Shown: positions 6,308-58,194 of the stretch, piece after piece
Layout of the letters: every line of letters starts with the position of its first letter
Position numbering within the stretch: position 1 is the first letter of the stretch
NCBI RefSeq assembly: GCF_964355755.1
Contig: NC_092671.1
Coordinates: 23,448,070-23,512,069 of the forward strand
Direction of reading: 5' to 3'
From: Antedon mediterranea
Lineage: Eukaryota > Animalia > Echinodermata
Length of the DNA: 64,000 nucleotides
The notes under the pieces: model-generated
What the model was told of the DNA's origin: nothing
The model's input: only the letters and a program-made list of their open reading frames with translations
Databases searched by the model: none
Translations under genes and position numbers: made by a program

Positions 6308-6810
6308 TCGCGTCGTTGACCAGCGAAAGCAAGAGTAAAAAACATAAGTTTTACGATTTTTATTTGACTTTGTATCATCCAAAAGAATAATTTATTTGAG
6401 TAGTATATATATATACGGCTTTACCACGTTGAAACACCGGTTCTTGTCAGATCACCGAAGTTAAGCAACGTTGGGCCTGGTTAGAGCTTGGATGGGAGAC
6501 CATCTGGGAATAGCGGGTGCTGTATACGGAGCTGGGGTCCCGTTAGGCATTTGAAATCAGCACTGCTGACTCTTATGGCAGCCCCTGCATCTAGTATCTG
6601 CCTCAGACCTCTGGTCAAGGTGGGCACTGGATGAGAGAAGCCCTTGATCAATGTCAGGACCAATGTCAGGACCAATCAAGGTGCTTTAAACTCTCCTGGC
6701 TTTGTTTGTATCAAACCTGTTAGTGGCGGTAATTATAGCTGTTGGTTTCGATTGAATAAAATAAAATTTAAAAAAATAAAAATATACAGAGATCCAGATG
6801 AAACTTTTTA
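6308..6810 (+). mobile_element. Penelope pseudo-LTR fragment interrupted by a SINE
   Basis: 6308-6410 plus 6783-6810 match the pLTR at 14618-14706 and the reverse complement of 13540-13660 (gcgtcgttgaccagcgaaagc...tatacagagatccagatgaa). Confidence 0.75.
6412..6780 (+). mobile_element. 5S rRNA-derived SINE (SINE3-type); 5S-like head at ~6412-6527
   Basis: Head tacggctttaccacgttgaaacaccggttcttgtcagatcaccgaagttaagcaacg...ttggatgggagacc..ctgggaatagcgggtgctgta follows the metazoan 5S consensus with mismatches. There is no oligo-T terminator; a ~230-bp body and A-rich tail follow. Confidence 0.8.
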
Positions 6811-14706: not shown

Positions 14707-14768
14707 ATACATTTAAAACATTAACATGAAAAGGTCTAGCTTAGTTTTCTTTCTTTTTTCATTTCCAG

Positions 14769-31722: not shown

Positions 31723-32550
31723 TCCCACTAAAAAAATCACCGGGATCGTGAAAATTCCCGGCGGGAAAAATGGTCGGTATTCCCGGCGGGATAATATCGA
31801 AATCCCGCAAAAATCCCGTCCAATATCCCGATCTTTAAACGGGATTTTAATCGGGATTATCGGCAAAACGAACTTGATTTTTAGCGGGATTTTAGCCGGG
31901 ATCCCGTCCCGACGGGAAAAATGGTCGGTATTCCCGTTCCCGACCGGGATCCCGCCAAGAATCCCGCTAATGACCGGGATTTTTTTGAGTGATATTTGTC
32001 CGGGATTTTAGACGGGATCCCGTCCCGGCGGGAAAAATGGTCGGTATTCCCGTTCCCGACCGGGATCCTGTCAAGAATCCCGCCGATGACCGGGATTTTT
32101 TTGAGTGAAATTTAGACGGGATTTTAGACGGGATTTCAGCCGGTATCCCGTCCCGGCGGGAAAACTTGTCGGTATTCCCGTTCCCGACCGGGATCCTGTC
32201 AAGAATCCTGCCGATGACCGGGATTTTTTTGAGTTATATTTAGGCTAGACGGGATTTTAGTGGGATTTCAGCCGGGATCCCGTTCCGACGGGATGTATGG
32301 ATTTCCGCCAGAGACTTTTGAAGACGTGCGTTTATTTCCTGGCCCGGCCGACTCAATTGTATAAATCTTCGTATACCTACGATCGTCCTTTTGATTTCAG
32401 TAGGCCCTATTTCAACCATAATTGGTATTCGGACAGACGTGAATGAAAGGACTAGATGCAAAAAAAAAAACAATTCAATTAATTAACAAACAAAAAGTGA
32501 TCACACAGAAATATCATAAACAAACAAAGTTTATTTTTCCTTCTTTTTTT

Positions 32551-35500: not shown

Positions 35501-36530
35501 ACATTCCAATAAAATTACAATAAACTACAACCCAGTGGTCTGAATGTTACAAAATAATGTATTTTAATTAATTAATTTAGTGTATAGGCCAATATTACGA
35601 TATCGTGGTAACATTTTGCGTATTAATAATAATGATAATAATAATAATAAAATAATAATAATAGTTAATAAAAATAATATTAAATAATAATAATAATAAT
35701 AATAATACCTCATCTCTACACATTTTTTTGTTTTTGTCTTTACTATCACGCGATCCCTCAGTATTATCCAATTTTGTGAAAAGTAAGTGAAAATATGGTT
35801 TAATTTTGACTATATATTGTTAGTAATTCTTCTCAAATTCTGAGCCGCTTTATAAAATGTCTGAAAATGCTTTTTTCATTGTTGAGTCTAAATATAAAAT
35901 AAATATAATGTTGAATACATCAGAATCGTATAAATAAGCCCCTATATGTCCCACTGAAAACTTATTGATTAATTATATTGTTAAAACTACAATCCCGGTC
36001 GGGATGACCGGGATCCCGGTGCGTCGGGATACCGGTCATCCCGACCGGGATTGCAAAACTAGCTTAGGCCTAGGCAGCTATCGTAGGCATACCTCTGCAT
36101 AGGCCTAGTCTAGCCTATTTCATATAGGCCTAGGCCTAAAGCTTATTTAATATTTAAAAAAAGAAAGAATAGCCTCTAGGCTAGCTATAGGCTAAGGCCT
36201 ATTTATTTTAAATCGATGATAAAATATTTTGGTCCATAAACAGAGCATGTAGCCTAGGTGAACCTACATATAGGCCTAGTCTGGGTAACTAAAACTCCTA
36301 GGCTTGGCCTAGGCAGCTCCCGCGCGGGGGGTACGGTGTACAACAGTAGGCACCACCTAGGCCCTACCTCCAGTTCTTCCAATCATCCCTTCCTGGATCC
36401 CAAATCCAGGGCATCTCGCCTTTACAATAGTGCCGACATTTAATGGCACTTTACTGATGATAGCTGACATTTTCAAGATGTTACCTGTTATTGGCTTATC
36501 CTTGTGCCATATCATTAATACTATAGACAT
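32551..36530 (-). CDS. Spliced transposon accessory gene encoding a proline-rich linker and C-terminal BEN-like domain; possibly a pseudogene (middle exons uncertain)
   Basis: GT-AG exons: 36368-36530 (MSIVLMIW...), 35442-35480, 33895-34102 (poly-Pro), 33463-33675 (EKLALSTLELLITKEQCYNKLTIYGHGKGNVQMDEAKRKTLR) and 32551-32669 (YLFNVYP...VWDQVVKKLNDKIRAIRNKKYKI*). The last three join in phase; the exons between 36368 and 34102 are not fully resolved. AATAAA lies just downstream. The pattern matches BEN helices (L..LF..E, G......LD......I, W......N.K.R). Confidence 0.7.
33091..33360 (+). ncRNA. Extended type I hammerhead ribozyme (left copy)
   Basis: ccag-CTGATGA (33121-33127), GAAA (33211-33214), a 15-bp stem III pairing 33214-33228 with 33331-33345, GTC cleavage triplet 33344-33346, then ctgg pairing back to ccag. 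Confidence 0.8.
34180..35200 (-). mobile_element. CR1-clade LINE 3' fragment in an intron of the BEN gene
   Basis: GVPQGSVLGPLLF, FADDTK, RPHLEYA and RTRGHQFKL motifs; short tandem 3' tail (acttgaatct)x2. Confidence 0.9.
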
Positions 36531-38686
36531 TATGGTAGTGTAGTTTTTTAAATAAATAAAATCTCTTGTTCGTTGAAGAATTGAAGATCAAGAATGGCGG
36601 GTTTGAATAAAAAAGTTCTGGTTTGATGATCGAGGCGGGAAAAAGTATTGGAAAATGGCTGTTGAAATAATTGATGGAGTAGGGGGGAGGGGGTGGTTGA
36701 GGGGCGCGTGTAGAAGTTTTATTTTGTATGAAATAAAAATGTTATAGTTTATATTGTATTATTATTATTTCTTTTATTCGTAAATCATAGAGGTTTGAAA
36801 TGATGGGATTTAAAAATGGGGAAAGGTGGTGGAGGGGGGGGGGGGGGATCACAAGGGTGATTCTTGTAATCTTTTTTTTTTTCGTTGGCCGGACGTACGT
36901 CGTGTATGTTCGGCAAGTAGATCGCGTCGTATGTTTAACATAAAACAAAAGGAATAAGGATCGAAGAAGATTTACGTGTATATATATATATAGATCGACA
37001 GACTAGAGTAAGTTTTATTTTCATTCACAGTCTACTGATAGTGACATGTAACTAAATGACTTTGTGTGGTGCCGATTCACTAATTGTAGACGTATATGTG
37101 TGTAGTGCGGCCCAGTCGATTACGCGCGTTACGATCATGACGTAACACTTGAGAATACTGTAGTATCCATCCGCGCCTCAGCGCTCTCTCAGATCTCTCC
37201 TATTTATTCCCTCCACACCAATCCCTGCTCACTAGTAAAATAAGGACAGGCATAATATTCAGCTTATATATATAGGTATACTAGCTAATGAGATGACTAT
37301 AAAACAATTTAATACTGTAATGTGTTCCCAGATGCCTTCTTTATGAAATTAACATAGATTAGACGGTGGCCTATATAAAGCGTGTTTTACAAAATGTTGA
37401 TAAAAACACATTTTTTGTTTTAGCCATGTCAAATACAGAAAGTAGCAATGATGACTTTGATTCGCCAACAAAGTCTAAAATTAAAAAGTTTCACTCTAAA
37501 CACTTCGGCTTTAATGCAAGAAGGGCTCGATATGCTGCTACCAGACAGTTCAAACGCAAACAACCAGCAAAATCAAGACCACCTAAACACATCTCTTCGA
37601 CTTCTGATAGTAGTAGTTGTAACAGTGAAGATGAAATAATCTCACCGAAAATGGTCGGCAGTTCTTCTACTACTACACCAAGTCATAGCAGCACGTCTGA
37701 TGATACTGGCAGTGACTTCTGGACAGAACCAACTTCCAGTAGTTCAAACAACACCCCTTTTTTAACGAAATTATTTCAAGGATCTGATCATTCATATATA
37801 AGCCTGTATACGTCGATTTTATTATTTGTAATTAAGCACTCACTCACACAAGCTGCATATTCTGATTTACTTTTGCTGATTTCTTCTATTCTCCCTTCAA
37901 CATGTAACATAGAGACATCACTATATAAAAACAAACAAATTATTAAACGGAACACAAATTTCAAGGAACCAACACCTAATTTTTATTGCGAGAGATGCTA
38001 TAAGGAGTTGGAAAATAAGCTTAGCGTTTGTCCATGTGGAGGTTCGTGTCTCTCATTCCATCATCTAAGTCTTGATGACCAGCTTAAGGAATTGTTTGCA
38101 GGTAGGCATAGCTATGGTTTTTCGATATATCATTCTAATTACAATCGTTTAAAAATAAAGTCAGCAAATACAGTCTCAACGTACGATGTTTGATATCTTA
38201 GAATATATTTATATTTGGAAATAAACGGTCTATTTTATCATTTAACCATAACGATATATTTTACGGAAGCACACACTGTATTATAATTATATATTTTATT
38301 ATAGATAAACAGTTTTGCGACATGGTTATGACGAAGAAAGTCAACAGAGATACCATCGAAGACATAACCGATGGCTTAGTATACCGCCGCATTGCCCCAA
38401 GTGCCTTATGGAGCAATGAGACATTCATAACCTTTACTCTAAATACAGGTATTAACAATATTACAGTTTTTCGTATTTAAACATTCTATTACCAACACAA
38501 AATTGTCATCATTCTCATTTATTTTTATTTTATTAGATGGTGTGTCAATTTTTTCATCGTCGATGAAAACGCTATGGCCAGTGTACCTGGCAATAAATGA
38601 ACTACCAGTACAGCTCAGGTACATTAATAACTTTTTTTTTTTTTTTTGTTTACAAAATGAATCGGAACCCGTACCTACCCCTTTTC

Positions 38687-41600
38687 TACGGGGCGCCGTA
38701 TGGGACAATGCTAATTTTGTCGAAATATTACAATTTTGTCTACACATAATTAATTTTGTCAATACAAAATTCATTTTGTCAACACAAAATTAATTTTGTA
38801 TTGACAAAATTCATTTTGTGTTGACAAAATTTATTCTGTGTGGACAAAATTAATTTTGTCTTGACAAAATTCATTTTGTCTCGACAAAATTAATTCTGTG
38901 TAAACAAAATTCATTCTGTGTAGACAAAATTAATTCTGTGTTGACAAAATTCATTCTGTAACGACAAAATTCATTTTGTGGCGACAAAATTCATTCTGTA
39001 ACGACAAAATTCATTTTGTGTAGACAAAATTAATTCTGTGTGGACAAAATTAATTCTGTGTAGACTAAATTAATTCTGTGTGGACAAAATTCATTTTGTG
39101 GCAACAAAATGTATTCTGTGTAGACAAAATTTATTCTGTGTAGACAAAATTCATTCTGTGTAGACAAAATTTATTTTGTCGCGACAAAATAAATTTTGTT
39201 GCAACAAAATTTATTTTGTCGCGACAAAATAAATTTTGTTAGCCGAGCCTACTCAAGCGTGGGACAAAACGTTTTAACATTTAAATTAGAAGGCGGGGTT
39301 GTTATTGGAAACTCGAAGATTGACAGTTATAGGCCTACGATCAAACAGCTCGCGAATATCATTTTACGACCTCCTCTACACCGGTGAACTTGAATACTTT
39401 GCGTCGAGTATAAGTACAGTTTATACTGACGTATAACAATATTATTGTATACTTAAACTTAATTCCGATTCAGCAAAACGGAACACGTAGCCCTCCCGGG
39501 TAGCCCTATATGCCTACCAATTTTGGTAATAAATATTAAAGATGGTTGAAGATTTATATCGATACCGATAATATTGATAAAGAAAATGACAACACTATTT
39601 ACGATAACATCTGATAAGTTGAGTAGTAATGAAATGATTTTAGTTAATACATTTATTTTAATATAATAGTTAGTATAGGCCTATTTATTCTTATGGGAAT
39701 TGCGTCGTCTATATAGGCCTATACCAAGTTTATTTGATAGGAATACTAAATTGCTAATAGGCCTAACTCAAGGGAACAAAACTATGATATATCTCTTAAG
39801 ACATATATTAATTGTCTCTAATTGGAATAATAGAGATATCTTTATTGAAAAGATATCTTGGTTATAACAGGGATATATCTCTATTGGAACCTAAGATCTA
39901 TATTGTAAACTAACTACATCTATTAAAAACTAAGATATTTTAGTTGCCTAAATAAATGACAGTTTGGTACGCCATAGATTATGATATTGCAAATTGTCGT
40001 TAAAAAGTTAAATTTAATTTCAAAGTTACGTTTAACTATTAATTTTACTCTCGGTTGCATATTATTATATATTTACACCCTCGAAAGATATAATTCAACT
40101 TTGACCAAATAGTTATATGGGTGTTCACACAACTGACATATGGCGCCACTCAAGTATCCATTCCCATGGCAGTGTATATAATCTTTCCACCTTCTCCATG
40201 ATTGATTTGATTTATTATACATTGGTAATTGCAAATAATTGTTTATAGGTTTACATTGTTCTTTGTACTTTTAATGTACGTATTCAGTCTTTTCCTGGCT
40301 TGATAAGATTGATGTTAAATAAAAATGCATTTTCCACTAATAAAATATGGAGTTGTATCGAGAAAGTATTGTAATTTCGGGCAGAATGGTTTTCGGTCTG
40401 GAAAGGTCATTATTACACTGTCTGGAGTGTTGATATTTATACATCGAATGTTTTATGGGCAATCAGTCCTGAACCTAGACAACTTGCGTAGACCCTCAGT
40501 CAAACCAGAATGGTTTTCGGTCTGGAAAGGTCATTATTACACTGTCTGGGGTGTTGATATTTATACATCGAATGTTTTATGGTCAATCAGTCCTGAACCT
40601 AGCCAACATAGGCTACCTGGCCTACTTACTACTGTAGGTTAAAGGTTATTAGGTTTCGCAGGGTGGATGATTGTTATAATAAAACTAACGTGAGCAATCT
40701 TTTGTAGTCAGTTCTTTAAATGTTTTTTTTTTTCAAATAACGGACAGCTTTCAGCATCATTATTTCTGCAATGATTATTACTATCTTAAAGATATATTGT
40801 CCCCTGAAAAAAATGTTTTTTTTTTAATCTTTTTGTTGAATATGTTATTTTAATGTCACATAATAGTTATTCACTTTCACAAAAAATTGGGTCTGAAAAA
40901 AAATTATTTACCTGAAAAAACTGTAATTTAAAGCAAAAAATTGTCAAATTGTCTGGAAGCCAATGAGTTTTTGGGTAATTTAACTGTTTATTTTGTCTTT
41001 AATAGTTGAAATAATTTTTTTCCCCGTTCTTTTTTCTTATGGAAGTGAACAACTTTATTAAAACTGCATAATGGCCTATTCTTTATTTTTCATGATTTTG
41101 GGAGACAATACATTTTTAATTTTAAAATAAAGTATATACATTTTATAAGATTAATAAATAATATTTTAAACGACAAAATATTAAATAGCCCCATTACTAC
41201 AATTTTACTTAAGTAATAAGCAGGGCTCTAATGAAAACCATTTTCCGATTTTTTAATATAGAATACATTATAATAATAATTATTACTGACGACGTAGATA
41301 TTAAATTGTCAAAGTATGAATACTGATCATATCTGATATTTTCAGGGGTTCCCTGATATTATAAAATAGATTAATATGATAGCAATAGAGACGGAGGCAT
41401 GCTCAGCCATAATAACTTAACCAATAACAAATGTCAAAGATAGCTTCACCCTCTCTTGCCCTTTTCACGTTTAAACTCCGCCTTCTAATTTAAATATTAA
41501 AACCGAGCCTACTCAAGCGTGGGACAAAATGTTTTAAAAAACGTTTTGTCCCACGCTTGAGTAGGCTCGGCTAACAAAATTTATTTTGTCGCGACAAAAT

Positions 41601-42126
41601 TTATTTTGTCTCGACAAAATGAATTTTGTTGCAACAAAATTCATTTTGTCTACACAGAATGAATTTTGTCTACACAGAATTAATTTTGTCCACACAGAAT
41701 TAATTTTGTCCACACAGAATTAATTTTGTCGTTACAGAATGAATTTTGTCTACACAGAATGAATTTTGTCTAGACAGAATTAATTTTGTCCACACAGAAT
41801 GAATTTTGTCGTTACAGAATGAATTTTGTCGCCACAAAATGAATTTTGTCGTTACAGAATGAATTTTGTCTGCACAGAATTAATTTTGTCAACACAGAAT
41901 TAATTTTGTCTACACAGAATGAATTTTGTTTACACAGAATTAATTTTGTCGAGACAAAATGAATTTTGTCCACACAGAATAAATTTTGTCAACAAAAAAT
42001 GAATTTTGTCCACACAGAATAAATTTTGTGTTGACAAAATGAATTTTGTATTGACAAAATTAATTATGTGTAGACAAAATTGTAATATTTCGACAAAATT
42101 AGCAATGTCCCAAACGGCGCCCCGTA
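38687..42126. mobile_element. Non-autonomous IS3EU-like element with TIRs built of 20-bp tandem arrays, in a transposase intron
   Basis: TACGG...CCGTA termini with a 6-bp TSD cttttc (38681-38686 and 42127-42132). (gacaaaattcattctgtgta)n at 38710-39240 is inverted at 41570-42110. Confidence 0.8.
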
Positions 42127-43482
42127 CTTTTCACGTACACGCTACTGGAGGCCTCTTTATCATACTGTATTTCTATTACCGGTTTGACATATTTAACAAA
42201 TCATTATTATTAGGTTTTCAAGAAAGTATTTAATGCCATGCAATGTGTATTGCCAGTCTCAAAAGCCCAATATGCAAATGTATTTGAATGACCTGATGAA
42301 AAGAATACTTAAGTACAATGAGGGTGAGACACTTTTATTCTTTGCTTTACATAACTTAATTAATAATAACAATTCACTATATTACAATCAGTAATTACCG
42401 TATTTATTCGAATAGACGCCCTCCCCCCCCCCCCCCCCCCACTTGAATAAACTCTCCTCCCTTCTCTCAAATAAATGCCCGGGGGGGGCATTGTTTTTTG
42501 TTCCTCAAATACACGCCCCGCCACATGCATTACACACAATATTTGTAGTAGAATTCATTGACTTCCATGATCTACAGTTTGACCATGTATTTTCGCGCCG
42601 CGGCTCTAGCCAGCTATGTCCCAGGAGGACACATTAATTAATAAGCTGTTTCATAGCGGTAGCTTTAGTATCTAAGGCTGACAGTTTTGTGAATTTGGAA
42701 ACTCGACTATAATTTATAGGTAGCTGCTGGACCCAAAAAACGTCTGGGAGAAGAGAGTCTATATGAAAGCCTTTGCTGATAATACAGTATTATTGAGATG
42801 TAGACGGAAATCTGTAAAATCTTGATCAATAAATAATAACTTCGTTTTTGCTGTCAACCAGGCCGGTATTATAATAAGTCACTGTCAAATAATCATTCGA
42901 TAATGGTCAAAACTTTATTTTGGCTCTGTCAACATAAAGGGAGGTACAGTATTTACAATGACTTTCTTTGACTGTCAATCTAGGCCAATGTTATAATAAT
43001 ACGCCGTCAGATATTAAATCATTGAAACAGTCCTCGTAAATTTTTTGTTGGTTATCAGATGCCGTGGGGGGTCCAATCAATTATCGTCAGAAGGTGATCA
43101 ATCAGTCTATGTAGCAGCAGCAGATTATTAGGAACGCCTGCTCCATTAATTAATCCAGAAAAAGGTTTGTACATTATCTATTTGTTTATTAGCCTTCTCC
43201 TAACACAATTATATTTTCTTTAAAAAAAAGGTTTTATAAGTGGTTTCAACATTTATGATAGTAATGTCACAGTTCTGTGTCTGGACGCAAGTTCATAGAC
43301 CTACTAGTTATATTATTCATATTAACTGATACTTACTCTTCATTTACCGTAAAGTTCAGTTTTAATGAAATATATAATATAAATTGGCTTCGTAACAATT
43401 AATTAGTTTTGAAAAGATTAGTTTTTTGGTGATAGGTGAAAATGACATGTAACTTCGTAATCAATTTATTTTTTTTGTATAA

Positions 43483-43843
43483 AGGCCCAATTACACTATG
43501 ACGATAACGACGGACGATAAATATATAGCATGCATTTTTTTTACATAAACCAAAAGAAATTAGAAAGGTTTTCGTTCTAGACCTATAGGATAATCATTTA
43601 TGCTGTCTTTGATAAAAATAATGTTTTTCAAATTCCAATCAAATGACGTCATGATAAATAAAAACAATAAAATCGCTGTATTGTCACGATATTATTGGTC
43701 TTACTAATCATGACGTCATTTGATTGGACGTGTGAAAATATAATTTTCATCAAAGGAATTGTTTATATTTCTTTTGGTTTATGTATTAAAAATGCACATT
43801 TGTCTATTTATCATCGATCGTTATCGTCCTAGTGTATGGGCCT
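43483..43843. mobile_element. Palindromic Harbinger-type MITE
   Basis: ggccca..tacacta.gacgataacga / tcgttatcgtc.tagtgtatgggcc with taa/tta flanks; the whole element is roughly self-complementary. Confidence 0.7.
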
Positions 43844-44054
43844 TATGCTGTAAATGTTCAATTAATTGATCATTCCGATTTTATTAGTTGGACTCTTGCA
43901 CAGTTGGTGTCTAATCGTTGTTGTGTAATATCATTTCGAACCATATTAAAATCATAAAGAGATTCATATTCCTTAACATGTGGCTGTGCATGGAAGTCTG
44001 GTCTACACAAACTCGGCCCCGGGCCTGAAAGTGTTGGTGAATTCATAATTATAC

Positions 44055-44094
<40 letters not shown>

Positions 44095-44098
<4 letters not shown>

Positions 44099-44270
44099 CC
44101 AAAGGCAAATTACTGAAAAATATGACAATGCTGTGGGTATCAGTGGCTGGATCTCAATGGAGATACAAAAATAAAAAGCGAAAAGCTAAATCAAAACGAT
44201 AAAGTAAACAGCCAGAAAAGTTAGCAGAGCTTTCGGGCAACACTAGCCCTTCATCAGTGCAAGTGACATA
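44095..44270 (-). mobile_element. Solo Penelope-type pLTR with a minimal hammerhead motif (44224-44260), next to a (TA)n run
   Basis: Minus strand reads gca-CTGATGA-a-gggc(tagtgtt)gccc-GAAA-gc-TC-tgc. Confidence 0.65.
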
Positions 44271-45501
44271 TAAATATATTATTATACAATTGAAAGCAAA
44301 ACCCGTTGAATCTCAAATCATTAGGACTAGAAATTTGGCTTATCAATCAAATAAATCTTTCGTTCAAAATGAAACTCCAACCTCTGTAATCAAAAGATTG
44401 AACTCGAAAACGGACCGTTTTTTTAATTGGGTATGTTGAAACATTTCAATATTCATTTAATAAAGTACATTAATTATGGTATTGATCAGTGGCTATAGAG
44501 GCGTAAAAACCCTCGGTCAATATCATGTAGAATGCACTGTGGAAGGGTCATTATTAAGACTGCAAAATTGGGCTTATCAACAAATAAATACTTTCGTTCA
44601 AAATGTAAAATCAAGGCTGAAAAATTGGGCTTATCAACAACAAAATATTTTATTATTAGACGCGATAACATCAAGGATAATCAGTATAATTATTAATATA
44701 GCCACTGTTACTTATAGTTTTATTCTACATGCTAAAGTAAATAAAAATCCACTAGAAAACAAGCAAGTCTGAATGTTATGCTTATTAGCCATGTTATGTT
44801 TGTTACTGTAGGCCTATGATTGTTTGTAATGTCCACATATTATTTCCGTGGGCATATCCATAGTGTATCACTCACAAAAAAGACGTGTGAGGTTCTTTCT
44901 TTAGATTTTGAAGAATGATTTGTGTTACATGTTGACACAAGAGTCAAATGCTCAAGATATCGGCTAACGCCATGGGACCCTTGGCTTATCAATGAATAAT
45001 AAATACAGTACTACTTTCGTTCAATTGAAATCGGAATCTGACTGTTTCATTAAATTGGGTGTGATTAGGCCTAAACATATAATAATTTATTAAAAAGGTA
45101 CAATAAAAACAAATGCATCAGAGGCGTAAAGAACCCACGGTAAATATCATATAAAATGTATATGGTATAAGCACTGTGGAAGGGTCATTATTATTAAACT
45201 GGAAAATTCGGCTTATCAACAAATAAATACTTTCGTTTAAAATGTAAAATAAGACTGCAAAATTGGGCTTATCAACAAATAAATACTTTCGTTCAAAATG
45301 TAAAACAAGCCTGCACAATTGGGCTTATCAACAAATAAAATACTTTTTTTTTTAAATGTAAAATTAAGACTGGAAAATTAGGCTTATAAACAAATAAATA
45401 CTTTTTTTCAAAATGTAAAATTAAGACTGGAAAATTGGGCTTATAAACAAATAAATACTTCCGTTCAAAATGTAAGAAAACATTTTTTAAATATAATCCT
45501 A

Positions 45502-45655
45502 AGCTCTGTCTATACTATCAAACTAAATATGATGTGCCCATATTATATAGACATGACGATGTCATATCACTACGATAATCGGGCATATCACTACCATATT
45601 TGGGCACATCACACTTTTTTGGTTAAACTAGTTGGGACAGTGTAGACACAGAACT
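45502..45655. mobile_element. Short Harbinger-like MITE
   Basis: agctctgtctatact ... agtgtagacacagaact, with an internal gatgtgccca / tgggcacatc inverted repeat. Confidence 0.5.
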
Positions 45656-48600
45656 ATGTGATCGAAACATAAGTCGGAATTGGACTGACGCGATTGATTT
45701 AATTGGGTATTTTTATTAATGTAATGATTCATTAAAAACTATAATACCGATACGCGTTTGGTATTGATCAATGGTGCAAAAAACCCTGAGAAATAATGTT
45801 ATAACGCGATTTGGTGATAGCTTAGCAATAATACAACCCATATACTATTATTATAAATACCTATTACAAATCCATTCATATAACTTTTCATCGCGAACCG
45901 AAAATGTATAAATGTTATTCTACAGACAGTAATTATATATTCAAAAGCCATATTATTATTATTATCAATACCTAAATGCGATAGTAATAACTACATACAT
46001 TATTCCCAATACAAGTGTGTGCGTTTAATTCTAGAAAGAAACGACTGTGCTGACAGGCCAATGACATAAATCACAAGTAAAGTCCCAATTGTTCACTTGC
46101 GTTTTGATTGGCCAACCTATTATATTAGATTAATGAAGACTGTTCTTACAACTGTCCAGTCAAAAAGTTACGCGGCGTTTTTTGTAAGAAATATTTCTTG
46201 TTTATATAATTTTTACTGTATTTTATCACATATTGATATTATAATTGTGTTGTATTTTTTCATATTTAGGACGAACTTATTTGATTATTCAGGTTACCAT
46301 ATTTTTACACAAAAAAACGCCTCCCTCGAATAAACTTCGAGAACCACCCCCCCCCCCCCCCGCCCACACCCCTAAAAACCTCCCGGGCATTTATTCGAAT
46401 AAATACGGTATTTATCAAGACGACGCAGCAATTGCAAAACAATACGAGAAATACGTTGGTGGTGAATTTGAGTTTGAAATTATAATTTTTTTTGATGATT
46501 TAATATTCGCAGGTGTTTTAATGCAAACTTATTATGGAAACCGTCTGATTACAGCGCGTCTTTTGGCTACATGCTTAGATCTACCCGCTAGAGCTATTGT
46601 ATCGAATATGAAACAATATAACGGACGATTCGGATGCAATTCAACGTATGGCTGCAGGAAGGTTCTATGGGAGCAACACCGTTACATCGCTTTTATCCGT
46701 ATAGAGCCACCAATGCACTACGGACGAATGATGGATTCAAAGAAAAGTCGCAAATGGCCGCCATGAATGGAGAAGCAGTACGTTAAGTTCTCATTTTGTT
46801 ACCGTGCTAATAAGAAAAAATTAAAAATTTTTGTTTTTTTTACCGTACCGTACTTATCTATTGCAGGTAAGCGGCATTAAAGGCGCATCACCACTCATGC
46901 TTCTTCCGTATGTAGACATGAAGGCAGCTATTCCAATCGATTGGATGCACTGCGTGCTCCTTGGCATCACGAAACAACTTGGCAAAGACTCCAAAGGACA
47001 ATCCTTTTACATTGGAAATAAGGTTAGTTGCAACATTTTGTGTAGGTGAACAATTTTACTGGACCAAAAGGCCAGGGATAGGCCCACTATTATATTGGCT
47101 TTTGTGAAAAACTATTTTTTACAATCAAAATATAATTTATGAAATATATATTATAATTGTATTTGTTTAGATTGCTCTTCTTAACGAGCGACTTTTGGCG
47201 ATAAAAACGCCTAAATTTGTCGCCCGACGCCAAAGAAGTCTGGACGAAAGCCAGCATTGGAAAGGTAAGATTAAAGAGATTAAGGAATTGCAACATGACA
47301 ATTATTGTTTAATTATTTTATTTTAATCCAATGAATACCTACTCATTGTACAGACCAGACACAACACACAGTAACGAACAGCCGATTGATCGAATTTGAC
47401 CAAGCAAACTTTAATTTATGTATTATTAATTTTATGATACTTTGGATTTAAAGCTTCAGAATGTCGTGAATGGCTCATTCACTTTCGATACCTGTTGTAA
47501 GAGGGATATTGGATCCAATGGCGTTACGTCCATTACAGTTTACTGGTATCGGCAATTTCTACTCTTGCACAGGAATCTATTACGAAAGAACAACTAATAT
47601 ATGCTGACACATTACTGACGGACTTCTGTGCAATTTTCCCCACAATCTATGGTAATTTAAAACATTTAACTTCTCTACGAATAATATTTATTTTATGCTG
47701 TGATACTCTATTTGAAACCCTGATTTTTTAATACTGGGTAAAAAGTACATTTTAAAAATGGCTTACCGTACTGTTTGTTGGATGGAATTTTCCCATTTCA
47801 ATTATATTTGTGAGATTGTATATTGAATTTTAATATCCTAGGTGAGACTAAGCAAACAATGAATGTGCACCAACTCACACATGGTCCATACATGTGAACG
47901 GTTTGGACCGTTATTTGGTTTCTCTTGTTTCGTATTTGAATCGATGAATTCTTTCTTAAAGAATATGGTCCATGGATCAAATTTTGTAACTGAACAGGTA
48001 TGTAAAACATTTATTTAAAACAATTCAAAACAAATAAATTCAGACAATTTATATTAATTGCATCAATATTTAATGATTTAATTAATCAAATTATAATATT
48101 CATCTACCGAAATATAGCCTAAAACATAAACCGAATTCTTTACATCATTTAAAATTACTTAGTGATCAAATTCCCACAGATAACGTTCGCTGCCAGCATG
48201 ACCAAGGCCTTGCCAGCATTGGTGTATAAACTGAAAGAAGAAAGCAGTACATGTACGAAACAGCTGCTTGATAGACTGACAGTGAAATATATGCGGCAGT
48301 AAGTTTCCTGTTTTGCATGTTAATGTTATTTGTCAACATAAATCAAGACATGATCAATGCATAATTCTCGAAAAAAAATGAATTTCTTTTATAAATTTAC
48401 AGTGGATTATTTAGCAGGTAGGCCTAGTCCTACAGTAGCTAATCGTTATGTCATTTGTTTATTGGTTAGAATAATCGTTTATATTACAGAGATAAAGAAC
48501 CCGATGTGACAACGGTACTAGGGAGAGGTGTGCCGATGACGGGTACCAATTTTCGATACCTAATTGCAGACCTCCGTCATGTGACGACTTTCAAGCGGCT

Positions 48601-48989
48601 CCAAAAGGGCAGTGTTGTATATACTTGCCAAAGCGAGACGAGCAAGACGAAAAGTAACTGCTGCGTCGTCTTTCAATTAAATGATGCCTGGGCAGTTGGA
48701 AAGATACTCACGTTTATCACATCCACAACATCCACTCACTGCATCATACAGACGTACACATTAGAAGGATCGTTATTTGATTTCAATCAAATAAGGCATG
48801 CTCAAATACGAGCGTATGATGACAGAATATTATGCCATCATATCCAGAAGGTCAAATCATCGTCAACAGTACTCGTACCAGTGTCACGCATTCTTAAGCC
48901 GTGCATCTTTATGCATATTCATGATGACACGTTTGTGTCGGTACCACCAAACTTGTTGGAACATGACTAGTGTAGTGCTAGTAGTATGT

Positions 48990-49350
48990 GGTGGGGTATG
49001 CGGGTTATTATAACCTTGGTGGAGTGACGTCCCTGCCCCCAAGATGCATAGTTATTGTAAATAATGGCGGGGTATGCGTGTCATACAGACCTTAGGGAGT
49101 GACGTCCCTACCCCCAAGATGCATAGTTATTGTAAATAATGGCGGGGTATGCGGGTTATTATAACCTTAGTGGAGTGACGTCCCTACCCCCAAGATGCAT
49201 AGTTATTGTAAATAATGGCGGGGTGTGCGGGTTATTATAACCTTAGTGGAGTGACGTCCCTACCCCAAGATGCATAGTTATTGTAAATAATGGCGGGGTA
49301 TGCGGGTCTTACAGACCTTAGGGAGTGACGTCCCTACCCCAAGATGCAAA
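48990..49350. repeat. ~62-bp tandem repeat (~5.5 copies) immediately after the transposase stop
   Basis: Unit ggggtatgcgggttattataaccttagtggagtgacgtccctacccccaagatgcatagttattgtaaataatggc with small variants. Confidence 0.9.
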
Positions 49351-49410
49351 GTTAGTTTATGGTATATTGGCCTAGATATATGAATTTTAAATGGCAAACA
49401 AAATAAAAAC

Positions 49411-49670
49411 TGGGTTTATTATCCCAGGACAGCCAAATCATCATTATTCAGTGTGTTTTTTTTTAAATTTGCTAAGATCTAATTAGTTTGTACGGTATGC
49501 CGTATCTTTATAACGAAATAATTATATCAATGATGATGACGGCTGTTTCGATCCTTAAAGTTGAGGTGACTATTGATCGGATCTCCTGCATACGACACAT
49601 GCATTGTCTATGCAGGAGTGCAGTATTGCACTCATCAGCTGGAAAACCAATAGCGTCATACCCTCAATTT
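49411..49670 (-). ncRNA. Extended type I hammerhead ribozyme (right copy)
   Basis: Minus strand: CTGATGA 49638-49632, GAAA 49549-49546, GTC triplet 49430-49428, same stems as the left copy. Confidence 0.8.
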
Positions 49671-49931
49671 AACAATAACTCAACTCAACAATTTTAAGTA
49701 ATTTAATTATTTTACAAAAGATAATTCAACTGATAAAAATGGGAATAATGTAATTTCGTCATGTTATACAAATAAATTCATTTTTGATCAACTGAAACAA
49801 ACATGTTAAAAATAGTGGTGCTTAACCACGTTATCGACATTTATTCAGTGAAAAAATAACAAAGAACATACTAAATATATAGAGTAACAGTTAATGAATT
49901 AACATTGATAATCAACTCAACGTAAACTTGT

Positions 49932-51578
49932 TTTTTTCATTTCATTTCATTTCATTTATTTCAATATCATTATCGCAGCCTTAGCTGAATTACAAAGATA
50001 TTTACATTTGTTCAATATTAAAATTTGTAAAAAAGTATAAAACCAATGATAAAAAAATATAAAAAAGGAGGAAATTTACACAAGAAATACAATACAGGAA
50101 CATTCAAAAAGTTTAGCTTAAAATATTAAAATAGAAAAAAAAACACCTAAAAGCATCAATAAAAATCGCAAAGCTGTACTGGGTGATATATACAGATTAT
50201 TCATTTAGAAGCGAGATAAGGTATGGAATTGCACTTTTTCTATATCTTTCAACTCTGCATTTGGGTTGTTGATACTTTACACGTCTTAGTTTCATGTTAC
50301 TTACATTCTTCACTGGAAACCATTTTCCAAAATGAATACTTTTTGAACAATTCAGAGCAAACTTATAGCATAGATTACGCCTTCTATCAGATAAAGTGTC
50401 TAAAGAAAGATCATTGAGTGCTTGGTCATAACATATGTAGTCATTACACAATATTATTCTGCAAGCCCTTTTTTGGACAGATTCTATCATATCACTTTGT
50501 TTCTTAGTGAGACTAGAATGCCATACTGGGACAGCATATTCAACACTTGGTCTTATGTAACTCTTAAATACATCTACAAGATCAAATTTCGGAAGATTGA
50601 ACTTTCTTAATCTACATAATATATGCAGACGTCTGCTGGCTTTGGATACAATTTCTTTAACATTACGGTCCCATTTGAGGTTAGCTTGAATCCATAAACC
50701 TAGTAACTTAGTTTCATTAACGATTTCAATTGTAGCATTACCAATGAAAAGGGGTTCATGTTCATATTGATTTCTTTGAAAGTTAAAATACATAGTTTTA
50801 CATTTAGTTGGGTTAAGTTTTAGTTTGTTTTCATTAGACCATACATTCAGTAAAGCAACATCATTCTGAATTGAGGAAATTACATCCTTTTTTACTATCT
50901 GTCCTATGCACAAATCATCTACATATTTCCAAGTTTTACATGGCGAGTCTTGCATGGCATCATTAATTAGAGCAAGAAAGATCATAGGCCCAAGGAGCGT
51001 ACCTTGAGGGACGCCACATGTTAGATTAACACTCATTGATAAGGTGGATTTATAGCGTACTTGTTGGGTTCTGTTTGATAAAAAGCTAATTAACCACGGT
51101 ACAATTTCAGGTCTACAACCAAGTGTTACTAATTTAGAAACTGCTATTGTGTGGTCAACACAATCGAATGCTTTACTAAAGTCAGTTAAAACTAACTGAC
51201 CAACAGATTTGGGAATGTTACTACCTTCATAGAACACATTTAGTAGATCAACCAAATTATGGGTTGTAGAAAAGTGTTTACGGCAACCATATTGGTTGTT
51301 ATCAAGATTTTTCTCGATATCTGTTAAGAGCCATTTTTTAATGAAGCCCTCAGCTACCTTAGCTAGGATACATGTAAGTGAGATTGGTCGAAATTTGTCA
51401 ACCCTAGTACAACCATTTTCTTTGGGAACCGGAGTAACAATAGCATCCTTCCACATAGTTGGGACATGACCCTCACTGAGGGAGGCATTTAAGATATTAG
51501 TCATAGGGATGCTTAGTTCACATGCAAAATCTCTTATTAATCTGTTAGGCACATTATCAGGGCCCGGGGACTTGTTAA
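49932..51578 (-). mobile_element. L2/CR1-clade LINE, 5'-truncated, with an open 451-aa RT frame
   Basis: ORF 50197-51552 contains FRPISLT, LTDFSKAFD, GVPQGTLLGP and KYVDD; (ATGAA)n tail at ~49936-49960. Confidence 0.9.
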
Positions 51579-52355
51579 CTCAACATCAATATATTCAACG
51601 TAGCATTGGTTAAATCAAATCAACTCGTTATTAATGAAGATGATATGTTAAATAAATAATAAAATATGTGATTTAAATGATCAAAGTAGCCGTGGCGTGC
51701 GTCGCATAAAATGGTGGCACATAAGGTAGGCCTACTATTGTCAAAAAAGATGCAGCGGAGCTAATTTGATCATTAATATAAGTGGTATTTAAAACAAAAC
51801 ACAATTAAACTATTCAACGCAAAAACATTTATCAACATTACCAGTAAAAATACATACAATTTACAGATGAATGCTGTCTGTTACGAATGTGGTATACCGA
51901 AATGATCCCAATGACTAATTCCGAAATAGACGCTTTCAAATAACTTAGATTGTGGCAGACGACATATCCTATTCTTATCTCGCTAATCGGTGGGATTCCA
52001 AACAAATCTCATCGTGATGTCGCTAAATATAAAAAAAAAAATTTCGAGACAAAATCCATAATTTGCACGAAAACGTAAAATCCCAAACAAATCCGTCTTC
52101 CCTAAATCAACTGTCCCGATCATATGATAAATCCCGCCGTATCGGTGGGATCCCAAACAAAAAATCCCGTTCATTCAGAATTTGCGCTAAAAATCTCGGT
52201 TAACCGACGGGTCGAGCACAAGCAAAATCCAGCCTATCCCACACTAGTCCCATAAATCTCGCCGTGGCGACGGGATCCCGAACAAATCCCGTTCATTCAG
52301 AATTTGCGCTAAAAACCCCGGTTGACCGACGGGAGCTACAAACAAAAATCCCACA

Positions 52356-55300
52356 TCTATATATAAATTTACGTAAGGGCAAAATTCGGTAAATTGCGCC
52401 TTACTTCTAGAATTTGTACTCGATGGTATATAAAGTTGGTTCGTACTTTCGGTACTGATTTTAACCACCTGATGTAACCCTGTTTACTAATTAAATTAAG
52501 TTAGATAATTAGTTATTGACGATTAAAACGAATTTAGGTTCAACGATTTGCCCCAAATAGAGGTGTTTTCCGATCGTGGTATACACTGTCTAATGGATGT
52601 CCATCTTGAAAAATACCCGCCACAAAAATGCGAGGAGGCTTCGCATTTTCCTATCTCCTCCTACGATAATTGTTTTTAATAGCTGAAAACCGGTTGAACA
52701 GCTAGAGTACACCATCATAATGTTGAAGACAGGCCGATTTTCTTAAAAAAATACTATTTTGATAGATTTAATATACGTTTATACAAATGTATTGATTTGC
52801 GATGAATGGAACATCCCAATCTCTCAGTCTGCCAGAGTTTGGTTTAACACAAGTAGGTAAATTTATGAGCCCCTGGTTTAACACATACGGTAGGTAAATA
52901 TATGGGCCCTTTGAGAATAAACTTGCAATACTTTGACAATACAGTAAATACCTCATTTGAATCGAAAGTTTCTTACTGTGAATGTTCGTACTGTTAGATG
53001 TAATATAAAAATATATACAAATAAACTGTATTACTGAGATTGTGGATAGGCTGTACTGTTAGATATATAAACACATTATTATATACAAATAAACTTTATA
53101 CTGACAGTTCCTTCTCAACGTTTGTATTAATTAATAATTACCAAAAATATAAACGTCGTAGTGGTGTATCGTGACATGTACTTTAATATTTCAATCGATT
53201 ATGACAGTGACAGTTTTAACAAAGTATTATTTATTAAATCTCAAATGTTTTACTGTATTTAGAGGTATAGTATTTATAGGCCTATAAAACAAGAACAAAA
53301 TATTTTGTTACTGAGTTGATAAAGAATATATTTAAAAATTGTTCCTCTTTGTACCTATCCGCTTTCCTATCCCTCAACCCTAATGTTACATACAAAACAC
53401 AAATTGGGTTTCTTTAAATGAGGCCAAATCAAAAATTTGGACTCATTTTGATAAGTTTCTCCTTCGGAAGTAATTCACAGGGTGCTAATTTTAGTTGACT
53501 ACATAAATCATCGTGTCTATTTATTCGTTTCTGTAAACGACAATGTATTATAGTCCTGCGGTACGTACATTTGAAATCGCCAGTTTTGCTACGCTGAAAT
53601 TACTGTTTATTCGAGAACCATCTGTGGGCACGACCTAGATGGTACGCGAGCGAAGCGAGCGTACCATCTAGTCTATATATAAATTTACGTAAGGGCAAAA
53701 TTCGGTAAATCGCGCGTTATTTCTAGAATGTTTACTCGATGGTATGTAAAGTTGGTTCGTACTTTTGGTACTGATTCTAACCACCTGATGTAACCCTGTT
53801 TACTAATTAAATTGAATTCGATAATTAGTTATTGACGATTAAAACGAATTTAGGTTCAACGATTTGCCCCAAATAGGGGTGTTTTCCGATCGTGGTATAC
53901 ACTGTCTAATGGATGTCCAATTTGAAAAATACCCGCACACAGTAATACGAGGACACTTCGCATTTTCCTATCTCCTCCTACGATAATTGTTTTTAATAGC
54001 TGAAAACCGGTTGAACAGTTCGAGTACAGCATCATAATGTTGAAGACAGGCCGATTTTATTTTAAAAATGCTATTTTGATAGATTTAATATACGTTTTTA
54101 CAAATGTATTGATTTGCGATGAATGGAACATTCCAATCTCTGTTCCACAAGTGTCTATTCCCTCAGGCGTCGTAAAAACAAGTACTGTATAGGCTACTCA
54201 TAACAGAAATTCGATCCATTTTTTTCACGCTGCTGCTCTAGCCCGCTACGTCCCATTAGGACTACTCAATCAGAAGCTAAAGCAAGCAGCAGTTATAGTT
54301 CTAAGGACAGACAGTTTTGTTAAAATGGAAACTCCACTATGATTTATTGATTCCAGCTGCTACAGTAGACCCAAAAAACGTCTGGGAAAGAGTCTATGAG
54401 GACATGTCATGCTAAAATTACAAATCCCTAAGCATTTCTGGTATATTCACTGTCAGATATTCATTGAATTATTATCGAAACAGTCCATTAAAGTTTGTGT
54501 TTGTAATAGGATACTTCACAATTGAAATATCTAGGGTGATGAAGTGACCCCCAGATTTGACCTTAGCAATAAAATTAACTAAAGTGACAGAAATTGAGTA
54601 TTCACTTCTGTAACAAAAAAATAATATTTATTCACATATAAAAAAAAAAGAAGAAACCCAAAAACTGACAGACAATTTAAGTATTTGTTGCTTTAAATTA
54701 CATTTTTCAGGTAAAATAACTATTATGTGACAATAAAATGACACATTCAAAAACATTTGAAATAAAAAATATTTTTCAATAAGCGAGCAGCGTTTTTTGT
54801 AAAAAATATTTCTTGTTTCAATCTGTGCTGCAGAGGTTGGATATACATTTTTTTTTAAACGGATAAATGAGCTAGCGTTTTCAGTCGCCGTATATTTATC
54901 CATATTTATGTACAAATATTTATTATTGCAGTTAAACCACCCACATCATCACCCTTCCCTCACTGGCATGAGTAGCGTTGTAAATCCAGTAGAGGATAGG
55001 CCTACAGTGCATCACATGCCCTAAACGCAGAACAACTTTGGTGGGTAGGGTAGGAACCAACTTAAGTATGAATTGGCTCTAAGAAACAATTGAAAACTAT
55101 TAGGCCTACTAATTAAGTTGAGTTAGATAATTTAATATATATTGACGATTAAATCGAATTTATGATTTGCCCCGAATAGAGGTGGTTTTCACAAATTGTT
55201 TTACATTTTATAAACATATACACGTCGTCGTAGTGATGTATCGTTACATGTACTGTACTTTTCAATCGACCAGGACGGTGATAGTTTCAACAAGTATTAC

Positions 55301-55726
55301 ATCGCAATGTTTTACTGTGTTTAGTGGTATATTAGTTGTAAAACATGAAAACAATTAATATTTCGTTACTAAATGGATAAAGAATATATTTAAAAATTGT
55401 TCCTCTTTGCACCCATCCTCTTCCCCATCCCTCAACCCTAATGTTACATATAAAACACAAATTAAGTTTGTTTAAATTTGACTTAAACAATTAGTCTCAT
55501 TTTGTGACAAGTTTCTTTTTCGGAAGTAATTCCCAGGGTGCTAATTTTAGTTGAGTACATAAATCACAGTGTCTATTTATTCGTTTCTGTAAACAACATA
55601 TATTATTGTTCTGCGGTACGTACATTTGAAATCGCCAGTTTTTTAACGCTGAAATTATTATGTATTCGAGAACCATCTGTGGGCACGACCTAGATGGTAC
55701 GCGAGCGAAGCGAGCGTACCATCTAG
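52356..55726 (+). mobile_element. Head-to-tail dimer of non-autonomous Helitrons (52356-53671 and 53672-55726)
   Basis: Each unit starts TCtatatataaattt and ends with hairpin ctagatggtacgc-gagcgaagcga-gcgtaccatCTAG. The dimer lies between A and T with no TSD. Confidence 0.85.
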
Positions 55727-55835
55727 TATCCCAAATTAACTGTCCCGATATAATGATAAATCCCGTCGTGGCGGCGGGATCCCGAGAAGAATCCCGCTCA
55801 TCCAGAATTTGCGCTTAAAATCCCGACAACCCGCC

Positions 55836-57606
55836 GGGATCCCGAAAAAATCACGATTATCCCGAAATTACGATCCCGATCCCGATGATAAATCTCACCG
55901 GGATGACCAAATCCCCACGGGATTCGGAGATCCCGTTTTTATTTTTTATTTTATGTCAAAAAATAAAAGGGTTAAAATTTTGCAAATTTTCGAACATTTC
56001 CCTCTGTGGGACCATAGGATTTTTTTTGAAAAAGGGCCAACATTTCCAATTTTTAAAATTCTATAATTATGCTATAATATTGCCATTTATGCAAATATAT
56101 TGTGTTAACATCATCTTATAGAGCCATAGTAACTAGTTATGTCAAAAAATAAAAGGCCAGGATCCCGAAAAAATCACGATTATCCCGAAATTACGATCCC
56201 GATCCCGATGATAAATCCCACCGGGATGACCAAATCCCCACGGGATTCGGAGATCCCGTTTTTATTTTTTATTTTATGTCAAAAAATAAAAGGGTTAAAA
56301 TTTTGCAAATTTTCGAACATTTCCCTCTGTGGGACCATAGGAATTTTTTTGAAAAAGGGCCAACATTTCCAATTTTTAAAATTCTATAATTATGCTATAA
56401 TATTGCCATTTATGCAAATATATTGTGTTAACATCATCTTATAGAGCCATAGTAACTAGTTATGTCAAAAAATAAAAGGGTCGAAATTTGGCCACTTTTC
56501 GAAAAATTTCCCTGCGAGGGACCATAGGATTTTTTTTCGAAAAATGGTCAAAATTTCCATTGTTTAAAATTCTAAAATTATGCTATAATATTGCCATTTA
56601 TGCAAATATATTGTGCTAACATCATCTTATAGAGCCATAGTAACTAGTTATGTGAAAAATAAAATGATCAAAATTTGGCCATTTTTCGAAAATTTCCCTG
56701 CTGGGGGACCATAGGAATTTTTTCGAAAAATGGCAGATTGTTTACTCAAAAGTCTTTGACCTTATAGTCCATGGGATTTAGCTAAAAAATGACCCTTTTC
56801 TCACACAAATTGCAAGAAAAGTTTTTTTTTGATGAAATGTGTTCTTTAGACCCTACTGAACACATTTATCAACGTTAGGACATTTTTCGACTACGGGAAG
56901 TAGCCTAATTTGCATAATTAAAAATGGCCGCCATTTTTAATAACGTACTCTGTATCTTGGAAACCGCTAGTCACAGATACTTAATTATGGTGTCAAAATT
57001 GTTAGAATATATGTTTTTATATTCACTTTATTGAAAAAGTTTGTCCAAAAATGAATGGAAGTGCTATTTCTAACATTATTGACCTTTGACCTTGAATTCT
57101 CATACCTCAGCAACCACTAATCGGAGATATACAAATTAGGGCTTAAATTGTTCAGAAACTATACATTTATATATCCAGTCTAATGGCATGTTTTTGCAAA
57201 AAATGGCGGATTCTAACATTATTGACCTTTGACCTTGACTTATCATATCTTAGCAACCACTAATCTGAGAGACACAGAATATGGCTCAAATTGTTAAAAA
57301 ACTACATATTTATATTTAGTCTAATGGCATGTTTTTGCAAAAAATTTCCGATTCTAACATTATTGACATTTGAACTTTGCACTACATAAAATCGCATAAC
57401 TTTGAAAATATTGTACATATAATATTATTTTTAGTGTCAAATTTTTCAGAACATATATGTTTCTATAGAGTCCAATGACACATTATGTCCAATAATGGCC
57501 TATTGTATGGTTAGTAACATTTGAACTATGTTTGAAAAGGATTTAAACCCGGAATGATCTTCATGTGGGCATCCATTAGAACATTTGTGATTTGGCACTA
57601 CTTGTT
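55836..57606. repeat. ~320-bp tandem duplication (55836-56155 vs 56159-56475) running into an unclassified repeat with ~187-bp sub-repeats and ttgacctttgaccttga motifs
   Basis: Direct sequence identity; the motifs are shared with the Academ TIR at 17185-17960. Confidence 0.65.
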
Positions 57607-57673: not shown

Positions 57674-58194
57674 CAAAGAATATAATATCACAAGAATGAG
57701 TATTCCGCGATTTTTGCATGAGAAATTTGTAACAGAGAGTGATGCCGCCCTCATAAGGGCGGATGTATACCGACTAAATAAGACTTGATTTAATAGATAT
57801 TATACATGTCACATTAAATAGAATTATGATAATATATTTTGCAATTGTAAACCATTTTATAATACATATTTAATAACAAACTAGTGTACATTCACTTCTA
57901 CAGACAATTATTTACTAACATGCTAAATTAGTTCACAAAAAAGGCCTAAACAGCAACACCAAAAATCAACGAAGCGTTACTCAGCAGAGCCTATTCTTTA
58001 CCATTGCCGCGTACTAATCTACGCCCGGTAAAGTATTGTTTTTATGATATAAATTAGTATAAAATACATGTTATTAATAGGATACAATTAAATTTCATTA
58101 ATAACATTTATTTGTTTTACCAGAAAAAAGTTTTACAAATTTCTCATGCAAAAACCGCGGAATACTCATTCTTGTGATATAATTATATTCTTTG
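57674..58194. mobile_element. Unclassified MITE with ~60-bp TIRs
   Basis: caaagaatataatatcacaagaatgagtattccgcg.tttttgcatgagaaatttgtaa is inverted at ~58132-58194. Confidence 0.7.

Follow-up and report, generated by a model that had tools for sequence, protein, structure and literature searches.

Candidate branched, pseudoknotted hammerhead ribozymes, antisense at a broken CACTA-type transposon of Antedon mediterranea

Genes, flanks and nested repeats of the locus

The window, by which we mean the whole stretch of 64,000 nt of Antedon mediterranea DNA analysed here, contains two divergent genes and, antisense to the 3′ part of each, one copy of a predicted hammerhead ribozyme, the two copies forming an inward-facing inverted pair. 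The right copy (49410–49667, minus strand, bounded by the pseudoknot arm and by the far end of the 3′ strand of stem I) lies about 440 nt past the stop codon of a transposase gene, and the left copy (33092–33361, plus strand; C3 at 33121, G12 at 33211 and C17 at 33346) lies within the predicted last intron (33462–32670) of the second gene. Self-comparison of the window returned them as two single inverted copies.

The transposase gene (37426–48970, plus strand) has multiple exons, is frameshifted and contains nested repeats. One of its exons retrieved 200 relatives at E values up to 0.001, among them one named from Branchiostoma; 11 of the 12 longer relatives tested match Pfam Transposase_21 (PF02992), and the window exons are collinear with the relatives and show frameshifts against them. 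These matches identify the gene between the copies, by homology, as a tnp2-family DDE transposase of the CACTA/EnSpm type. The window's own exons, which are too short, gave no Pfam match when searched alone, and neither the C-terminal nor the catalytic pieces of the transposase drew a relative in word-based protein searches. Transposase-based locus searches returned nothing from viral contigs, and no related loci came from the viral and prokaryote collections. One intron of the gene holds an element (38687–42126) with inverted arms of about 600 bp (91% identical) built of 20-nt tandem units. A 75-bp tandem array of 4.9 copies (48989–49354) occupies part of the interval from the transposase stop to the right ribozyme.

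The second gene runs on the minus strand. In our hand-built model its last three predicted exons (34102–33895, 33675–33463 and 32669–32551, together spanning 32551–34102) have GT–AG borders, open frames and matching phases, and the gene also has a proline-rich exon. We take these exons to resemble those of a BEN-domain gene. Searches of Pfam, PDB and Atlas and word-based homologue searches gave no match, a single-sequence fold of the product was uninformative (one long helix), and our literature search found no report supporting BEN domains in CACTA elements. The locus resembles CACTA/EnSpm elements (PF02992) in its collinear multi-exon tnp2 gene, its second divergent gene and its repeat-rich flanks, but differs from them in carrying the two inward-facing ribozymes.

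Each ribozyme copy has a GTTGA-rich flank on its 5′ side. The left one (32800–33091, plus strand) holds 8 motifs in 286 nt, against a window mean of 0.70 per 500 nt; the right one (49668–49930, minus strand) holds 6 motifs in 271 nt and resumes at 51577–51670, with 3 motifs in 66 nt, past a LINE. Aligned with each other, the right and left flanks score 76, against a null of 42 ± 7 whose maximum was 65 among 200. The LINE that splits the right flank (49930–51579) ends in a 5-nt tandem tail; we considered it as a carrier of the ribozyme and rejected it, because the left copy has no LINE at that place, and treat it as a nested insertion. Like the fragments at 34260–35208 and 25629–27241, it is a 5′-truncated LINE reverse transcriptase fragment on the minus strand.

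Beyond the GTTGA-rich flanks, the motif CGGGATCCCG is clustered on the left (31724–32300, a candidate subterminal region) and on the right in two parts (51985–52355 and 55730–55940), with a further central cluster between the two divergent genes (35990–36050). The window has 13 matches against 0.18 expected, all of them lying either on the outer sides of the two ribozymes or in the stretch that separates the two genes, and the left and right clusters align no better inverted than direct. The two parts of the right cluster are separated by a nested, partly duplicated block (52356–55728) whose ends carry a hairpin and CTAG and which is presumably Helitron-like. CACTA/EnSpm elements end in short terminal inverted repeats that start with CACT(A/G), make 2–3-bp target duplications and carry subterminal repeat arrays at both ends. 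A candidate pair of such ends at 31616 and 57886 has a 9-bp match and a 3-bp duplication, a result given by 8 of 1000 shuffles at thresholds set after sight of the pair. We downgraded it because its right end falls inside another inverted repeat, that of a small element at 57682–58183 with 51-nt inverted arms of 96% identity. The search of the window yielded no trustworthy terminal inverted repeat.

Hammerhead core, branched stem II and pseudoknot

Read on the minus strand, 49667–49410 has the parts of a hammerhead, which is what an earlier note on this DNA had proposed; a GUC site accompanies the core and the stems I and III. A relaxed descriptor, in which CUGAnGA and GAAA could be as much as 120 nt apart and stem III could hold as much as 200 nt, recovered the right and left copies and nothing else in the 64 kb; both have CUGAnGA, GAAA and UH in type I order with no core substitution, a stem I of 6 bp, and stem III lengths of 7 and 12 bp across the pair. 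Dinucleotide shuffles matched the descriptor in 0 of 40 cases at stems of at least 5 bp and in 7 of 40 at 4 bp, and the folding z scores of the two copies are −5.1 and −4.9. Judged by its sequence, the motif belongs to the type I hammerheads: its core is complete, both stem I and stem III are there, and it is stem I that has the open ends. The prediction that it would escape standard hammerhead models was borne out: at the gathering threshold Rfam matched neither copy, its sole match in the window being a 5S rRNA, and at E values up to 10 the right copy drew a partial match of 14.1 bits to Hammerhead_1 (RF00163, gathering score 34) and the left copy none. A loose pattern scan of metagenomes gave 120 loci, none alike beyond the pattern itself (7 have the CUGAUGA extension, all without the branched motif), and pattern scans of prokaryote genomes and of viral contigs gave 0 loci each.

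The right copy opens with the pseudoknot arm (49648–49667), which adjoins stem I on its upstream side, followed by the 5′ strand of stem I (49647–49639) and the core CUGAUGA (49638–49632). Then come G10.1 (49631) with hairpin 1 (49630–49619; 4 bp, or 5 bp in the isomer described below), hairpin 2 (49583–49618; 10 bp, or 9 bp in the isomer, with a variable tip), and hairpin 3 (49582–49551) with C11.1 (49550), the loop of hairpin 3 including the pseudoknot strand 49575–49561. These three hairpins abut as had been described, and all the pairs named for them are Watson–Crick. The remainder comprises GAAA (49549–49546) and stem III with its AT-rich variable loop of about 100 nt and the GUC site (to 49428), then the 3′ strand of stem I with U1.7 and a bulge (49410–49427). 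Stem I has 6 bp, then the bulge, then a distal part of 4 bp; stem III has 6–7 bp plus an extension. With C17 at 49428, the predicted cut falls between 49428 and 49427.

The proposal of a four-way junction at the base of stem II is supported, with one change of emphasis. The 1-bp stem II that went with it, G49631–C49550, is a possible pairing, but ViennaRNA favours an isomer and gives the pair a probability of 0.0 even with stems I and III forced. G49631 and G49583 can exchange their partners C49550 and C49618 in a single branch-migration step, and the migrated isomer has hairpins of 5, 9 and 5 bp, the pair G49583–C49550 and no separate 1-bp stem. A third reading pairs the first GAG and takes G8-A9-G10.1 from the second. 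The computed energies are −32.2 kcal/mol for the 1-bp form, −41.6 kcal/mol for the migrated isomer and −41.2 kcal/mol for the third reading, and they are not decisive, because the program charges a second multiloop and has no coaxial or tertiary terms.

Hairpin 3 would stack beneath the G–C pair on the core and so serve as an ordinary 5-bp stem II, with hairpins 1 and 2 stacked on one another and pointing away from the core. The crossover would come after G10.1 in the 1-bp form and after A9 in the isomer; with hairpin 3 stacked in this way, A9 and G12 would meet an identical G–C pair and identical side-arm stacks in both, and for this reason the two forms should differ little in energy when the core has folded. 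The predicted stem II is better described as a helix of 5 bp that carries, grafted at a nick, an arm of two hairpins. Because hairpin 1 of the right copy falls on the canonical stem II when aligned to Rfam Hammerhead_1, the branch may derive from a duplication or insertion beside an ancestral stem II.

The third reading makes the second GAG the active one: G49585-A49584 would be G8-A9, the extra hairpins (7 bp, and 7 + 3 bp) would be inserted at core position 7, and hairpin 3 would be a plain 5-bp stem II. Its energy is level with that of the best isomer, and the deletion in the left copy leaves a 4-bp version of its hairpin. However, insertion of a single nucleotide after A6 already reduces activity according to the accessible text of PMC3088659, the known alignments in the accessible part of PMC10085705 have at most 1–2 nt inserted around CUGAnGA, and among the variants listed for public contigs the GAG changes fall only at this second GAG (49585 and 49586, one contig each in runs X5 and X8, apparently a decayed copy). 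We consider an insertion at position 7 very improbable and retain the branched stem II.

The pseudoknot that had been proposed between the hairpin-3 loop and the 5′ flank is supported by its duplex energy: the loop and 49667–49648 pair at −14.7 kcal/mol, a value reached by 10 of 5000 random 25-mers drawn from the window. We keep the predicted pairing of loop and arm with a slight shift from the uca/uga register: at 49569, site of the most frequent loop variant (U→C, 1867 of 1919 depth units in X5), C agrees better with a 7-bp register that includes G49654. U or C at 49569 is the one pair-compatible variant in the pseudoknot, where no compensatory change was seen, and among the variants listed from four runs none at 1% or more falls in the arm (49648–49667). 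The pseudoknot would keep stems I and II side by side. It had been thought to replace the usual loop–loop contact, but replacement is unnecessary, U1.7 being present and unpaired.

An extended form of this complementarity between arm and loop produces the nested minimum-energy fold, which has neither hairpin 3 nor stem I. Nested folding did not return the active fold of either copy: the minimum-energy folds have no hammerhead junction, stem III has a pair probability of 0.87–1.0, and stem I has one of 0.0–0.06 because a 3′ hairpin and the extended arm–loop helix win. The 3′ hairpin is a 5-bp refolding of the stem I 3′ strand, and it still beats stem I (probability 0.06) when the pseudoknot strands are set aside; A9 is paired in a competing hairpin in 0.34–0.68 of the ensemble. 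From such folds one could argue for a vestigial or mostly inactive hammerhead, trapped by the arm–loop helix, a 7-bp hairpin over G8-A9 and the 3′ hairpin, and kept for some other service such as protein binding or RNA stability. Hammerheads whose helix II has 1 bp or is missing cut slowly, at about 1e-2 and 1e-3 per min (accessible text of PMC13725137), which points the same way. Against a trapped fold, the pseudoknot and coaxial stacking lie beyond ViennaRNA, and the pattern of variation described below speaks for a working core.

Variation among copies

The stretch is present in 8 of the 9 listed public runs, which carry two organism labels and come from 3 studies, and variants were taken from contigs of 6 of the 9. 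None of the runs that contain it is listed as RNA; X9 may be. In X2 the summed contig depth is 330–400 over the ribozyme and 13 over the flank, a hint of tens of ribozyme copies, depth not being a copy count. Within 49541–49667 the variants listed occupy at least 23 positions (8 further indel rows apart), affecting 7 of the 93 positions in the core, stems or pseudoknot, against 16 of the 34 that are free (p = 2e-6). None of those listed at 1% or more falls at C3–A6, G8, A9, G12–A15.1 or the four junction G/C positions. U7 (49634), at which variation is expected in a hammerhead, is the sole varying core position among them. Hairpin 1 varies in its loop (49622–49625), and the variants of hairpin 2 cluster at 49591–49606.

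The public contigs did not show covariation in the junction helices: none of these helices has a compensatory double change among the variants seen, and 7 variants do strike stems. One of these, 49617 U→G (362 of 1176 in X5), has no partner change listed. Changes of 49616/49615 to U, at a loose end in X1 and X2, and of their partners 49585/49586 to A, in a contig of X5 and of X8, were considered as compensation and rejected, since they are not on one molecule. The two window copies, near-identical as they are, carry no covariation. Because contigs in five runs (X1, X2, X5, X8 and X9, covering both organism labels) lack about 20 nt at 49638–49659, and with them the 5′ strand of stem I and C3, copies that are dead by sequence exist, apparently as one shared dead copy or a subfamily.

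The two window copies are identical at 156 of 165 aligned columns of the ribozyme and at 65 of 111 of the stem III loop (Fisher p = 2e-13), for which the shuffled null is 50%; in the 5′ and 3′ flanks the counts are 102 of 162 and 82 of 166, and past the 3′ strand of stem I, on the downstream side, the aligned copies share no similarity. Stems I and III and the GUC site have been retained across a loop diverged almost to chance. This retention, and a catalytic core that is invariant at 1% or more among the variants listed while U7 varies, argue against the trapped hammerhead, which we regard as improbable. Very probably the branched hammerhead is a selected structure, and we expect, with somewhat less assurance, that the ribozyme cleaves.

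The left copy had been described as the same as the right except for a 2-nt deletion in hairpin 1 and a few changes in the hairpin-3 loop. The listed differences are there (the loop has a 3-nt insertion and one change), but sameness does not extend to the stem III loops, which are just 59% identical. Nor does the deletion hold as a fixed feature of the left type: it occurs in the left window copy, and contig 9 of run X2 is without it while sharing that copy's other three differences. For that reason the deletion is either private to this haplotype or an assembly error.

Both window copies have G49623, which is missing from 27392 of 28472 depth units in X1, and both retain C49596, which is altered in 9496 of 10575. 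Since they share these loop alleles, a minority in X1, despite nearly saturated stem III loops, the comparison suggests concerted evolution of the ribozyme pair, by conversion between linked arms. Gene conversion could also have made the cores alike if the ribozyme and its GTTGA-rich flank were a non-autonomous retro-module of about 600 nt, mobilised in the manner of retrozymes or Penelope elements, that landed twice in this transposon, where insertions were tolerated in antisense orientation only. Animal type I hammerheads occur mostly in retroelements (accessible text of PMC6765202 and PMC7229834), the module would have a similar length on both sides, its positions are an intron and a 3′ region, and the window has a Penelope-like GIY-YIG fragment (E = 0.012, below the cut-off). 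On the other side, tandem repetition, terminal redundancy and target duplication are absent at both copies. As far as the accessible sources go, stem III here is long and stable, whereas it is short in Penelope and retrozyme hammerheads. It would be unlikely for a family with perhaps tens of copies to land twice independently inside 16 kb, at places that mirror each other with respect to the genes and repeat clusters. We hold a twice-landed retro-module to be possible but doubtful, and continue with a linked pair.

Known systems and a possible role

Of known ribozymes, the Hammerhead_1 (RF00163), Schistosoma-type and non-LTR retrozyme hammerheads (PMC7229834, accessible text) come close in being type I, in their full core, GUC site and stem I sequence, and in being multi-copy. 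Unlike in Hammerhead_1, CUGAUGA and GAAA are separated here by three hairpins that add up to about 80 nt; the present motif also has a stem III loop of about 100 nt and a predicted 13–15-bp pseudoknot, and it does not lie in tandem repeats. The non-LTR retrozymes of animals, in that same text, carry their hammerheads in tandem repeats of 150–450 bp, whereas here no tandem array covers either copy. The hammerheads of Penelope pLTRs and Terminons (accessible parts of PMC6765202 and PMC6431247) are likewise built into a mobile element near its ends; those elements, however, are retroelements whose hammerheads have a minimal stem III and act as dimers on the sense RNA, whereas our copies neighbour a DDE transposase gene and are antisense. 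In Penelope pLTRs a very short palindromic stem III lies beside the RT/GIY-YIG region, in contrast to the 7–12 bp, the loop of about 100 nt and the GIY-YIG-like frame 18 kb away seen here.

Pseudoknots and 1-bp stems II are already known: in the accessible text of PMC3088659 (Perreault et al. 2011), about 40% of the set has a stem I–II pseudoknot, and a natural hammerhead with a 1-bp stem II is fast in vitro, the tested example being a metagenome-derived type II ribozyme. We found no description of the two-hairpin branch at stem II, and that text describes no multi-hairpin junction in stem II for its set. The type I hammerheads of fungal RNA viruses (PMC13725137) also have a long helix III and tolerate a 1-bp or absent helix II; in the accessible text they are slow and have no stem II, whereas the chromosomal motif described here would gain the equivalent of a 5-bp stem II by stacking and carries two further hairpins together with a predicted pseudoknot. 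The same text reports hammerhead variants with additional helices, citing Weinberg 2015 and Forgia 2023, the latter showing no such stem II branch in its accessible part. Non-circularly permuted hammerheads (Eckert et al. 2023, PMC10085705) are alike in having a rewired connectivity that escapes standard models. In our case the block order is the ordinary C-G-S of type I, and what would be new is a branch within stem II or at its base. The isomer with no 1-bp stem would break the assumption, found in the accessible part of that work, that a stem II strand directly follows CUGAnGA. In the open literature accessible to us we found no report of a natural four-way junction in a hammerhead stem II, although supplementary alignments may have branched entries.

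As hammerhead surveys assume a simple stem II right after CUGAnGA, a natural branch-migrating four-way junction would represent a class missed by Rfam models, and a branched stem II would offer a natural graft site for switches. The ribozymes of mobile elements described so far in the accessible sources belong to retroelements (PMC6765202, PMC6431247, PMC7229834) and serve RNA intermediates; for DNA transposons, our search of the accessible open literature found no such report. If our reading is correct, a self-cleaving ribozyme serves an element that has no RNA intermediate, and guarding a cut-and-paste element would be a new job, defence against antisense transcription.

Our main reading, to which we give a probability of about 0.5, is that a multi-copy, branched and pseudoknotted hammerhead pair lies antisense in a broken CACTA-type transposon and likely cuts transcripts that read in from its ends. 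Cleavage would occur 3′ of C49428 and of C33346, and the 3′ piece, refolding as a hairpin, would be released. Whether the ribozymes belong to the transposon is evenly balanced in our estimate, which rests on one locus. The weakest step is the last, in which the pair would be a standing part of the transposon family and would limit antisense RNA against the two mRNAs. We put forward this guard role tentatively, judging it rather unlikely: protection by the left ribozyme would not reach the last exon of the second gene, and antisense orientation would also be the outcome of selection against sense insertions. More speculatively put, and with no greater confidence, an animal CACTA family may carry at each end a branched, pseudoknotted hammerhead, the two evolving in concert and facing inward as a one-way valve against read-in antisense RNA, which would blunt small-RNA silencing; its mobile junction may tune or gate the cut.

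Two further traces of mobile elements lie to the left of the pair. The Penelope-like RT/GIY-YIG fragment spans 13566–14710 and has 114-bp inverted repeats on either side; the descriptor found no hammerhead with stems of at least 4 bp there, and a related 98-bp piece lies just upstream of the 5S rRNA (6411–6528). At 29337–29717, on the minus strand, there is a P-element-type transposase fragment with a weak Pfam match (E = 0.01).
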